From NCBI RefSeq assembly GCF_050920415.1, contig NZ_CP169309.1: a DNA stretch of 64,000 nt. The stretch is one strand, 5' to 3'. Source of the stretch: Escherichia coli. Lineage in GTDB: Bacteria > Pseudomonadota > Gammaproteobacteria > Enterobacterales > Enterobacteriaceae. The position numbers and the translations under genes are program-made. Below the pieces are notes generated by a model that saw nothing but the letters and a program-made list of their open reading frames with translations, ran no database searches and was not told the origin of the DNA. Positions 29,962 to 50,317 of the stretch are shown here, piece by piece. Position 1 is the first letter of the stretch, and every line of letters starts with the position of its first letter.

Positions 29962-30723
29962 ATGTCGCTCGTTTGTTCTGTTATATTTATTCATCATGCC
30001 TTCAACGCTAACATTTTAGATAAAGATTACGCCTTCTCTGATGGTGAAATCCTGATGGTAGATAACGCTGTTCGTACGCATTTTGAACCTTATGAGCGGC
30101 ATTTCAAAGAAATTGGATTTAATGAAAACACCATTAAAAAATATCTACAATGCACTAATATTCAGACAGTGACTATGCCTGTTCCTGCGAAGTTTTTACG
30201 TGCTTCAAATGTACCAACTGGATTACTTAATGAAATGATTGCTTATCTCAACTCTGAAGAACGCAATCATCAGAATTTTTCTGAACTTTTGCTTTTTTCT
30301 TGCCTGTCTATTTTTGCTGCATGCAAAGGTTTCATTACATTATTAACTAACGGTGTGCTATCCGTATCAGGGAAAGTGAGAAACATTGTCAATATGAAGC
30401 TGGCACACCCATGGAAACTAAAAGATATTTGTGATTGCCTGTATATTAGTGAAAGCCTGCTGAAGAAAAAACTAAAGCAAGAGCAAACGACATTCTCACA
30501 AATTCTTTTAGATGCCAGAATGCAACACGCAAAAAATTTGATACGCGTAGAAGGTTCAGTCAATAAAATTGCCGAAAAATGTGGTTATGCCAGTACATCT
30601 TATTTTATTTATGCTTTCCGCAAACATTTCGGCAACAGTCCAAAGAGAGTTTCAAAGGAGTACCGTTGTCAAAGGCACACGAATATGAACACGGGCAACA
30701 CGATGAATGCTTTGGCTAATTGA
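29962..30723 (+). CDS. ydeO: YdeO, AraC-family acid-resistance regulator
   Basis: 253 aa recognised as YdeO, with a C-terminal AraC HTH (..KIAEKCGYASTSYFIYAFRKHFGNSP). Confidence 0.95.
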   Translation: MSLVCSVIFIHHAFNANILDKDYAFSDGEILMVDNAVRTHFEPYERHFKEIGFNENTIKKYLQCTNIQTVTMPVPAKFLRASNVPTGLLNEMIAYLNSEERNHQNFSELLLFSCLSIFAACKGFITLLTNGVLSVSGKVRNIVNMKLAHPWKLKDICDCLYISESLLKKKLKQEQTTFSQILLDARMQHAKNLIRVEGSVNKIAEKCGYASTSYFIYAFRKHFGNSPKRVSKEYRCQRHTNMNTGNTMNALAN

Positions 30724-46511: not shown

Positions 46512-47915
46512 ATGGAGATGTATTTTAAAAGAATGAAAGATGAGTGGACCGGACTTGTCGAACAGGCAGATCCGCTCATTCGTGCCAAAGCCGCGGAAAT
46601 TGCCGTTGCGCATGCCCATTACCTGAGCATTGAGTTTTATCGGATTGTCCGTATTGACCCGCATGCCGAAGAATTCTTGAGTAATGAACAAGTTGAGCGG
46701 CAGCTGAAAAGTGCGATGGAACGCTGGATTATTAATGTGCTTTCTGCCCAGGTTGACGATGTTGAAAGGCTAATACAAATCCAGCATACCGTCGCAGAAG
46801 TGCATGCCCGCATCGGCATTCCAGTAGAAATTGTCGAGATGGGGTTTCGGGTGCTGAAAAAAATCCTCTATCCGGTGATTTTCTCTTCGGATTATTCTGC
46901 CGCAGAAAAACTTCAGGTCTACCATTTCTCGATTAACAGTATTGATATCGCGATGGAAGTCATGACCCGCGCGTTTACCTTTAGTGACAGTAGTGCCTCA
47001 AAAGAAGATGAAAACTATCGTATCTTCTCGTTACTGGAAAACGCCGAAGAAGAAAAAGAACGCCAAATAGCCTCAATCCTTTCATGGGAAATTGACATTA
47101 TCTATAAAGTTCTGCTGGATTCTGATTTAGGCAGTAGTTTGCCTTTAAGCCAGGCTGATTTTGGCCTGTGGTTTAACCATAAAGGTCGACATTATTTTAG
47201 CGGCATTGCCGAAGTGGGTCATATCTCCCGCCTGATTCAGGATTTCGACGGTATTTTTAATCAAACCATGCGTAATGCAAAAAATTTGAGCAACAAAACT
47301 CTGCGGGTGAGATTTTTATTACAGATAAGAAATACCGTATCGCAAATTATTACCTTGCTGCGTGAATTATTTGAAGAAGTATCTCGCCACGAAGTGGGTA
47401 TGGATGTACTGACAAAATTACTTAACCGCCGCTTCCTGCCGACCATCTTTAAACGCGAAATTGCCCATGCCAACCGGACCGGAACCCCCCTGTCAGTGCT
47501 GATTATTGACGTTGATAAATTCAAAGAGATCAACGATACGTGGGGCCATAACACCGGTGATGAAATTTTGCGTAAAGTTTCTCAGGCCTTTTACGACAAC
47601 GTCCGCAGTAGTGATTATGTTTTTCGTTACGGGGGAGATGAATTTATCATTGTCCTGACTGAAGCTTCTGAAAACGAAACGTTACGTACTGCAGAACGTA
47701 TTCGCAGTCGGGTGGAGAAAACCAAACTGAAAGCCGCAAACGGCGAAGATATTGCCCTCTCACTTTCCATCGGTGCCGCCATGTTTAATGGTCATCCTGA
47801 CTATGAGCGCCTCATTCAAATAGCCGATGAAGCTCTGTATACGCCAAAAGACGAGGTAGAAACCGTGTTGAACTCTGGAAAGCCAGTCTTTAGATGCGCC
47901 AGGATGCAGAGGTAA
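46512..47915 (+). CDS. dosC: DosC (YddV), globin-coupled diguanylate cyclase with a frameshifted extreme C-terminus
   Basis: 467-codon frame recognised as DosC, with the GGDEF motif (RYGGDEF). After ...IADEALY the frame reads TPKDEVETVLNSGKPVFRCARMQR*. The +2 frame carries the conserved AKRRGRNRVELWKASL*. Confidence 0.9.
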   Translation: MEMYFKRMKDEWTGLVEQADPLIRAKAAEIAVAHAHYLSIEFYRIVRIDPHAEEFLSNEQVERQLKSAMERWIINVLSAQVDDVERLIQIQHTVAEVHARIGIPVEIVEMGFRVLKKILYPVIFSSDYSAAEKLQVYHFSINSIDIAMEVMTRAFTFSDSSASKEDENYRIFSLLENAEEEKERQIASILSWEIDIIYKVLLDSDLGSSLPLSQADFGLWFNHKGRHYFSGIAEVGHISRLIQDFDGIFNQTMRNAKNLSNKTLRVRFLLQIRNTVSQIITLLRELFEEVSRHEVGMDVLTKLLNRRFLPTIFKREIAHANRTGTPLSVLIIDVDKFKEINDTWGHNTGDEILRKVSQAFYDNVRSSDYVFRYGGDEFIIVLTEASENETLRTAERIRSRVEKTKLKAANGEDIALSLSIGAAMFNGHPDYERLIQIADEALYTPKDEVETVLNSGKPVFRCARMQR

Positions 47916-47917
47916 TC

Positions 47918-50317
47918 ATGAAGCTAACCGATGCGGATAATGCCGCCGATGGCATTTTTTTCCCCGCCCTTGAGCAAAATATGATGGGCGCGGTGTTAAT
48001 TAACGAAAATGATGAAGTGATGTTTTTCAACCCCGCCGCAGAGAAACTCTGGGGGTACAAACGCGAAGAAGTCATTGGCAAAAACATTGATATGCTGATT
48101 CCGCGAGATTTGCGTCCCGCGCATCCTGAATACATCCGTCACAACCGTGAAGGCGGTAAAGCGCGCGTCGAGGGGATGAGTCGGGAGCTGCAGCTGGAGA
48201 AAAAAGACGGCAGTAAAATCTGGACCCGTTTTGCGCTATCGAAAGTGAGCGCCGAGGGTAAAATTTATTACCTGGCGCTGGTACGGGATGCCAGCGTAGA
48301 AATGGCGCAAAAAGAACAGACCCGACAATTGATTATTGCTGTTGACCATCTCGACCGACCGGTGATTGTCCTCGATCCGGAACGCCATATTGTGCAGTGC
48401 AATCGCGCATTTACCGAAATGTTTGGTTACTGCATTAGCGAAGCCAGCGGTATGCAGCCCGATACACTCCTGAACATTCCAGAATTCCCTGCTGATAACC
48501 GCATTCGTTTACAACAGTTGCTATGGAAAACCGCCCGCGATCAGGACGAATTTCTGCTGTTGACGCGCACCGGTGAAAAAATCTGGATTAAAGCCTCTAT
48601 CAGCCCGGTCTATGATGTGCTCGCGCATCTGCAGAACCTGGTAATGACTTTCTCGGATATCACCGAAGAACGGCAAATCCGCCAGCTTGAAGGCAATATT
48701 CTCGCCGCCATGTGCAGCAGCCCGCCATTTCATGAAATGGGGGAAATCATTTGTCGTAACATCGAATCTGTTCTCAACGAATCGCATGTTTCGCTGTTCG
48801 CGCTGCGCAACGGGATGCCGATACACTGGGCGTCATCTTCGCACGGTACAGAAGTTCAAAATGCGCAAAGCTGGTCAGCGACCATTCGTCAGCGTGACGG
48901 CGCACCGGCGGGGATCCTGCAAATTAAAACCTCGTCAGGAGCAGAAACCAGCGCCTTTATCGAACGCGTGGCAGATATCAGCCAGCATATGGCCGCGCTG
49001 GCGCTGGAACAGGAAAAAAGCCGTCAGCATATTGAACAACTCATCCAATTTGATCCGATGACCGGTCTGCCAAATCGCAATAACCTGCACAATTACCTCG
49101 ATGACCTGGTCGACAAAGCCGTCTCTCCGGTGGTCTATCTCATCGGTGTTGACCATATTCAGGATGTGATTGATAGCCTTGGCTATGCGTGGGCCGATCA
49201 GGCATTGCTGGAAGTGGTCAATCGCTTTCGTGAAAAACTCAAACCGGATCAGTATCTCTGTCGTATCGAAGGTACGCAGTTTGTCCTCGTGAGCCTGGAA
49301 AACGACGTCAGCAACATTACCCAAATCGCCGATGAGCTACGGAATGTGGTCAGCAAGCCGATAATGATTGACGATAAACCATTCCCGCTCACCTTGAGCA
49401 TTGGCATCAGCTACGACGTGGGTAAAAACCGCGATTACCTGCTCTCCACTGCCCATAACGCGATGGATTATATTCGCAAGAATGGCGGTAACGGCTGGCA
49501 GTTCTTCAGCCCGGTGATGAACGAAATGGTGAAAGAACGATTGATATTAGGCGCAGCGCTGAAAGATGCGATTAGCAATAACCAACTGAAACTGGTTTAC
49601 CAACCGCAAATCTTCGCAGAAACGGGTGAACTGTATGGTATCGAAGCCCTTGCTCGCTGGCACGATCCTCTGCATGGTCATGTGCCCCCTTCACGGTTTA
49701 TTCCTCTCGCAGAAGAGATTGGCGAAATCGAAAATATTGGGCGCTGGGTCATCGCGGAAGCTTGCCGTCAGTTAGCAGAATGGCGTAGCCAGAATATTCA
49801 TATTCCAGCGTTATCCGTTAACTTGTCTGCGCTGCACTTCCGCAGTAATCAGCTTCCTAATCAGGTGTCTGATGCAATGCAAGTCTGGGGCATTGACGGC
49901 CACCAGCTAACGGTGGAAATCACCGAAAGCATGATGATGGAACACGATACCGAAATTTTTAAGCGCATCCAGATCCTGCGCGATATGGGCGTGGGTTTAT
50001 CGGTAGATGATTTTGGTACGGGTTTTTCCGGGTTATCCCGCTTAGTCAGTCTTCCGGTAACGGAAATCAAAATTGACAAAAGTTTTGTTGATCGTTGTCT
50101 GACTGAAAAACGCATCCTTGCCTTACTTGAAGCTATTACCAGCATTGGGCAAAGCCTCAATTTAACCGTCGTAGCGGAAGGCGTCGAAACCAAAGAGCAA
50201 TTTGAGATGCTACGCAAGATTCACTGTCGCGTTATTCAGGGATATTTCTTTTCCCGCCCCCTGCCCGCCGAAGAAATTCCAGGCTGGATGAGTAGCGTGT
50301 TACCGCAGAAAATCTGA
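47918..50317 (+). CDS. dosP: DosP (YddU), haem-PAS regulated c-di-GMP phosphodiesterase
   Basis: The start is at ATG 47918 (MKLTDADNAADGIFFPALEQNMMGAVLIN), giving 799 aa. Domain order is PAS-PAS-GGDEF-EAL, with the EAL motif (YGIEALARW). Confidence 0.95.
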   Translation: MKLTDADNAADGIFFPALEQNMMGAVLINENDEVMFFNPAAEKLWGYKREEVIGKNIDMLIPRDLRPAHPEYIRHNREGGKARVEGMSRELQLEKKDGSKIWTRFALSKVSAEGKIYYLALVRDASVEMAQKEQTRQLIIAVDHLDRPVIVLDPERHIVQCNRAFTEMFGYCISEASGMQPDTLLNIPEFPADNRIRLQQLLWKTARDQDEFLLLTRTGEKIWIKASISPVYDVLAHLQNLVMTFSDITEERQIRQLEGNILAAMCSSPPFHEMGEIICRNIESVLNESHVSLFALRNGMPIHWASSSHGTEVQNAQSWSATIRQRDGAPAGILQIKTSSGAETSAFIERVADISQHMAALALEQEKSRQHIEQLIQFDPMTGLPNRNNLHNYLDDLVDKAVSPVVYLIGVDHIQDVIDSLGYAWADQALLEVVNRFREKLKPDQYLCRIEGTQFVLVSLENDVSNITQIADELRNVVSKPIMIDDKPFPLTLSIGISYDVGKNRDYLLSTAHNAMDYIRKNGGNGWQFFSPVMNEMVKERLILGAALKDAISNNQLKLVYQPQIFAETGELYGIEALARWHDPLHGHVPPSRFIPLAEEIGEIENIGRWVIAEACRQLAEWRSQNIHIPALSVNLSALHFRSNQLPNQVSDAMQVWGIDGHQLTVEITESMMMEHDTEIFKRIQILRDMGVGLSVDDFGTGFSGLSRLVSLPVTEIKIDKSFVDRCLTEKRILALLEAITSIGQSLNLTVVAEGVETKEQFEMLRKIHCRVIQGYFFSRPLPAEEIPGWMSSVLPQKI

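Follow-up and report, generated by a model that had tools for sequence, protein, structure and literature searches.

A one-base deletion found in a single Escherichia coli assembly shifts the reading frame at the C-terminus of the DosC GGDEF domain

Introduction

DosC (DgcO, YddV) of Escherichia coli K-12 is an oxygen-sensing, globin-coupled diguanylate cyclase, which forms with DosP (PdeO) a known pair encoded in one operon (PMC11543664). Structures of its GGDEF domain are available (PDB 4zve, 4zvf, 4zvg and 4zvh). Here we analyzed dosC and dosP in a 64,000-nucleotide (nt) stretch of an E. coli genome (contig NZ_CP169309.1, assembly GCF_050920415.1), referred to below as the window, in which dosC lacks one base close to its 3′ end. 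An earlier note made from the sequence had drawn attention to this deletion and had read it as either a sequencing error or a real mutation.

Two other systems provide points of comparison. In the cyclase PleD, K442 and R446 bind the phosphates of guanosine triphosphate (GTP) (PMC7288161; PMC3509222), the equivalent residues K289 and R293 of DgcR bind the γ-phosphate (PMC8041772), and GGDEF domains without equivalents of PleD K442 and R446 have been called inactive (PMC3509222). Myxococcus xanthus SgmT, an evolved receptor for cyclic diguanylate (c-di-GMP) with a degenerate A-site, carries this signature of inactivity. Natural inactivation of dosC is likewise known from the E. coli/Shigella lineage: dgcO of Shigella flexneri (S1870) has been truncated by a fixed deletion, which takes away its entire GGDEF domain, and other cyclase genes of the lineage have also been inactivated by deletions, frameshifts or nonsense mutations (PMC11327459).

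The window shares with K-12 the locus, the dosP partner and the three-domain architecture of DosC, and differs from it in that residues 444-460 are replaced, R450 is missing along with the terminal strand, and the stop codon lies 2 rather than 24 nt before dosP. Compared with the S. flexneri allele, the lesion is a single base, is present in one assembly and affects only the last 17 residues. Compared with SgmT, which lacks both members of the C-terminal Lys/Arg pair, DosC of the window lacks the Arg but retains intact A- and I-sites as well as the Lys, and its loss is an accident of frame.

Results

Codon 444 of dosC lacks one T

The window is nearly identical to the genome of E. coli MFDS1022581 (NZ_CP169399.1; from animal-source food, Korea), the nearest genome, which we used as reference. 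Over about 63.4 kb, the two differ by one IS2 copy, five single-nucleotide polymorphisms (SNPs) and three single-base insertions or deletions (indels). The sole difference in dosC is one T: the reference reads CTGTATATCGCC where the window reads CTGTATA-CGCC, with the gap aligned between window positions 47841 and 47842. This alignment, together with thousands of other genomes, confirms that relative to the ancestral TAT ATC GCC, which the earlier note gave as the K-12 reading, one T is missing at this position. In MFDS1022581, dosC is intact and encodes 460 amino acids (WP_000426275.1), and dosP starts 24 nt further on. DosC of the window is identical to that of MFDS1022581 over residues 1-443, and the GGDEF domain of the latter (residues 297-460) is in turn identical to that in PDB 4zve. 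When one T is put back into the window sequence, it encodes the 460-amino-acid protein, which is found on 148 contigs. This single indel restores full-length identity, and the intact form is what the population normally carries, which is the pattern of a frameshift pseudogene.

The two competing frames were described correctly from the sequence at the outset. According to the translation of the open reading frame (ORF), the dosC frame continues after IADEALY and ends in IADEALYTPKDEVETVLNSGKPVFRCARMQR with a TAA stop at 47913-47915, while the neighboring frame, starting at 47843, reads AKRRGRNRVELWKASL and ends with a TAG at 47891-47893. The latter peptide is identical to the C-terminus of the crystallized K-12 DosC (PDB 4zve). 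Because this out-of-frame remnant agrees with the wild-type tail at every nucleotide, the frameshift is no chance resemblance. The base was lost within TATATC, a context that contains no homopolymer and has no GATC or CCWGG within 20 nt; a homopolymer error or a methylation-motif error as the specific cause is thereby ruled out.

The deletion is private to this assembly

We searched for the deletion in the DNA of 5,426 complete E. coli genomes (28 Gb), in a metagenome collection and in a collection of species representatives. A 40-mer centered on the junction, which seeds only on genomes bearing the deletion, had no match in the complete E. coli genomes even at E ≤ 10, while the wild-type 41-mer used as a control was found in 4,756 of them. 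A 70-nt query across the site matched 5,314 of these genomes at 95-99% identity and none at 99% or more; among the matches listed, the best ones cover 71 nt and therefore contain one gap. Exact searches for the deletion pattern returned nothing from the metagenome and species-representative collections, where the wild-type pattern occurs 52 and 3 times, respectively. At the protein level, neither a collection of approximately 15 billion proteins nor 153 billion gene positions include the 467-amino-acid product. Of the contigs that carry the identical DosP allele, the 24 read are all collapsed into one place, and the contig shown there has a 460-amino-acid DosC upstream.

The allele is private, as no other sequence searched has the deletion. 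Comparison with dosC alleles of related strains, a check proposed in the earlier note, found the wild type in the nearest relative and as the norm in the population. The notion that many DosC orthologues might share the new tail was not borne out, and a natural alternative C-terminus of GGDEF domains is ruled out by the failure of the deletion to recur in the collections searched. A programmed or conserved frameshift is excluded for the same reason, the disruption being absent from every other sequence searched. The marks of a recoding site were also missing in the sequences searched and at the junction itself: there is no shared disruption, no full heptamer and no significant RNA structure. 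The lesion, if real, is a pseudogene-type accident, neither a conserved nor a regulated feature.

The window holds an ordinary E. coli dosCP operon (Table 1). DosC of the window has three domains above the Pfam cut-off in the order PF11563 (Protoglobin), PF21118 (DosC_2nd) and PF00990 (GGDEF), dosC lies directly upstream of dosP, and the gene order is that of the annotated relative, so that the locus has the architecture expected of DosC. The DosP protein has a sequence that is common in E. coli in exactly this form.

Table 1. Positions of the features of the dosC-dosP locus in the window
Feature	Position	Strand	Remarks
dosC (dgcO/yddV), frameshifted	46512..47915	+	467 codons + stop
Deletion junction	47841..47842	+	lacks one T of wild-type codon 444 (ATC); TATATC becomes TATAC
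Novel 24-codon tail TPKDEVETVLNSGKPVFRCARMQR and TAA stop (47913-47915)	47841..47915	+	
Out-of-frame remnant of the wild-type C-terminus, AKRRGRNRVELWKASL, and TAG	47843..47893	+	includes the K446 and R450 codons
Former dosC-dosP spacer, 24 nt	47894..47917	+	now translated within frameshifted dosC
dosP (pdeO), intact	47918..50317	+	799 codons + stop

The frameshift removes one of two putative phosphate-binding residues

The change of reading frame at codon 444 replaces the 17 C-terminal residues of the wild type (IAKRRGRNRVELWKASL) with 24 unrelated ones; the globin sensor and middle domains are untouched, as is most of the GGDEF domain. Pfam still recognizes the GGDEF domain, although its score falls to 163.7 bits from 173.1 bits and the alignment stops at profile position 157 of 161. 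Upstream of the shift, DosC keeps the GGDEF A-site (G374-F378, GDEF), the RSSD I-site (365-368) and residues D333, K338, N341, D350 and D376, which correspond to D327, K332, N335, D344 and E370 of PleD. These correspondences were derived from alignment offsets and agree with the DosC residues that PMC5549716 names.

The motif A-L-Y-x-A-K-x-x-G-R-N/x-R can be seen in several unrelated cyclases of solved structure when they are aligned to the affected segment. The proposal that the frameshift destroys this motif holds in part: A445 and R447 through L460 are lost, G-R-N included, whereas ADEALY lies upstream of the shift and survives, and K446 is retained by coincidence (TPK in place of IAK). The last helix of the cyclase had likewise been proposed to be replaced; its last turn is, together with the terminal β-strand, but the rest of the helix is unaffected. 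Within the last turn, A445P introduces a proline. Residues 447-451 change from RRGRN to DEVET (R447D, R448E, G449V, R450E and N451T), which replaces the basic patch R447/R448 with Asp and Glu. K446 is the equivalent of PleD K442, and R450, now Glu, is the equivalent of PleD R446. Measured against an active cyclase, the A-site and the metal- and base-binding residues are thus all present, and the C-terminal Lys/Arg pair is broken. No K446 or R450 mutants of DosC were found in PMC5549716.

Judged by the roles of these residues in other cyclases, the frameshifted DosC, if the deletion is real, is probably catalytically crippled. We infer that its activity would be abolished or strongly reduced, and the protein may also be unstable.

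A milder outcome would follow if the ribosome corrected the frame. A -1 slip on CCA AAA G (47844-47850), 3 nt past the deletion, is predicted to restore the wild-type frame and to yield a DosC with only I444T and A445P, so that the gene would be leaky or recoded and not null. In the mutant frame, the AAA codon has an A before it and a G after it, which would allow tRNA-Lys to re-pair in the -1 frame, and the codons after re-pairing read RRGRNRVELWKASL up to the stop. However, a full X XXY YYZ heptamer is lacking, the CCA in the P-site cannot re-pair, no stimulatory structure was found and the expected efficiency is very low. Nor is the site conserved for recoding, as every other genome has the gene in frame. 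We regard this explanation as extremely unlikely.

The relocated stop codon is not expected to change dosP translation much

The new dosC stop lies 2 nt before the dosP ATG (47918-47920), as originally reported. With the distance calculated as start minus stop minus 3, the gap between the dosC stop and the dosP ATG shrinks from 24 nt in the wild type to 2 nt in the mutant. The stop now falls between the dosP Shine-Dalgarno sequence (GAGG, 47909-47912) and the ATG. The former spacer also contains, at 47894, the ATG that is the historical start of an 807-amino-acid DosP.

From this geometry, altered translational coupling between dosC and dosP had been suggested, a claim for which we found no support. 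Ribosome re-initiation is roughly constant at stop-start distances of 0-25 nt (PMC4538824). Because 24 and 2 nt both lie within this range, no large change in coupling is expected. Folding of the junction RNA (47860-47960) gave z = -0.32, that is, no significant structure, and for this reason no structure-based argument for coupling can be made either. A scan of dosCP for promoters and terminators returned nothing bearing on the lesion. Altered dosC-dosP coupling is possible but is not predicted to be large.

These data also bear on the idea of a functional variant under selection, in which the new C-terminus and the stop 2 nt before the dosP ATG would alter DosC output and tighten coupling. 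The TAA between Shine-Dalgarno sequence and ATG is indeed a geometry typical of coupled genes, and DosC and DosP are a push-pull pair from one operon (PMC11543664). Yet, given the near-constant re-initiation, a shortening of the gap from 24 to 2 nt should have little effect, the junction has no significant RNA structure to unfold, and no second occurrence was found in any collection searched, hence no sign of selection or spread. Selection for such a variant appears very unlikely.

Three further observations concern the dosC-dosP junction and its surroundings. In a close relative (GCA_039787015.1, contig ABSKRV010000002.1) with an identical PqqL, the dosC stop has been lost through a TAG to AAG change (L064:19427-19429). 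This stop abuts the historical in-frame DosP start (ATG CGC CAG...), and reading runs on into WKASLKMRQDAEVIMKLTDADN; a single DosC-DosP fusion ORF is predicted, and no separate dosC protein is called in the record. The 90%-identity cluster that holds DosP of the window has 20,917 members, in which 460-amino-acid DosC is mixed with 799-amino-acid DosP; fused ORFs such as that arising from the stop loss in ABSKRV010000002.1 may bridge the two. Finally, at 47939-47962, about 20 nt into the coding sequence of dosP, there is a terminator-like hairpin (AATGCCGCCGATGGCATT) with a run of T after it. The hairpin contains just 3 G-C pairs and could have arisen by chance.

A real deletion and an assembly artefact both fit the data

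The evidence continues to support the either/or reading of the earlier note, sequencing error or real mutation. We give an even chance to a real, very recent and private one-base deletion in the sequenced clone. The quality of the assembly speaks for it. The window is 100% identical over 7,123 bp to an independent short-read assembly in Logan (run ERR10854063), which reproduces two states of the window, an A at 19286 (a lineage SNP) and an A6 run at 20064 that is intergenic and A6/A7 polymorphic among close relatives. At ydeO (29962-30723), an A5 run (30571-30575) in the window goes with an intact YdeO of 253 amino acids, whereas ydeO of MFDS1022581 has an A4 run and is annotated as frameshifted; the private homopolymer indel at this gene therefore lies in the MFDS1022581 assembly. 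No further private indel was found in the 64-kb window. The agreement with ERR10854063, the intact ydeO and the lack of other private indels together characterize the window as a clean assembly. That the deletion lies outside homopolymers and Dam/Dcm sites was also counted for a real change, and the truncating deletion in S. flexneri dgcO (PMC11327459) and the stop loss in ABSKRV010000002.1 illustrate that dosC is lost or altered naturally.

Several points weigh against a real deletion that cripples DosC. The allele is a singleton, and its base call is that of the assembly consensus. Singletons are enriched for consensus errors, and the kind of error that usually persists in long-read assemblies is the single-base deletion. 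The 467-amino-acid product is not on record in Logan, although ERR10854063, an isolate of the same sub-lineage, is included there; this absence is indirect evidence that the deletion is probably not present even in the nearest relative sampled. Look-ups of dosC in ERR10854063 via DosP and PqqL gave other contigs only. The lack of secondary decay downstream fits a very recent event and an artefact alike. As to the protein, the loss of activity is argued by analogy from residue roles in other cyclases, K446 is retained, and an AlphaFold2 single-sequence model of the mutant GGDEF domain (predicted local distance difference test score, 47.8) was uninformative on the folding of the tail.

The alternative is that the organism does have the T and that base-calling, consensus polishing, assembly or later data handling dropped it, in which case dosC would encode a normal protein of 460 amino acids. 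We consider such an artefact a serious possibility, somewhat short of an even chance. It would explain why the deletion is unique among the 5,426 complete genomes and all other collections searched, why the nearest relative is wild type, why the contig displayed for the identical DosP has a 460-amino-acid DosC as neighbor, and why the wild-type frame downstream shows perfect preservation. The sister assemblies also differ by a high ratio of indels to SNPs (3:5 in 64 kb), which suggests that at least one of the two contains some consensus error. On the other hand, the odd homopolymer length at ydeO belongs to the sister assembly and not to the window, no other private indel was seen across the window, both other window-specific states that were checked were confirmed by the short-read assembly, and the context of the deletion is neither a homopolymer nor a Dam/Dcm motif.

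The comparison with MFDS1022581 also revealed differences away from dosC. The 1.33-kb IS2 insertion of MFDS1022581, corresponding to window positions 14728-14733, is absent from the window. Two reciprocal SNPs at 16451 (G/A) and 16460 (A/G) fall in an ORF on the minus strand (15044-16651) that encodes a hypothetical protein of 535 amino acids, where they sit in a 9-nt tandem repeat (CTTGCTGGT / CTTACTGGT). The pair looks like shuffling of repeat units or an assembly ambiguity. The exact 535-amino-acid protein of the window had no match in the 15-billion-protein collection.

Discussion

If the deletion is real, we propose the following consequences. Loss of one T at codon 444 would shift the frame, leaving residues 1-443 in place and exchanging the last 17 residues for 24 others. 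The loss of R450 and of the terminal strand, together with A445P, would compromise binding of the GTP triphosphate and probably also the stability of the domain. The resulting cyclase would be catalytically dead or strongly hypomorphic, perhaps still able to dimerize and to bind partners, and the net output of the DosC/DosP pair would shift toward c-di-GMP degradation. dosP itself is intact, and little change in its translation is predicted.

A more far-reaching version is that the deletion is both real and selected in a food-chain clone, with a catalytically dead DosC scaffold still pairing with an active DosP, the rheostat locked toward c-di-GMP degradation, and poly-N-acetylglucosamine (PGA), curli and colanic acid changed as a result. 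In such a clone, -1 slips at CCA AAA G, at a low rate, might still yield traces of an enzyme close to the wild type. We consider this scenario very unlikely.

The locus is most suitably classed as a known gene with a frameshift lesion and not as a new family variant. It provides no new GGDEF C-terminal variant, recoding site or operon arrangement, and both the gene and the pair were already known. The significance beyond this single strain is small, given that the lesion is biologically ordinary and the gene well studied. If the missing T is an artefact, the outcome is one false pseudogene annotation; if the deletion is real, the isolate would be a natural dosC hypomorph or null.

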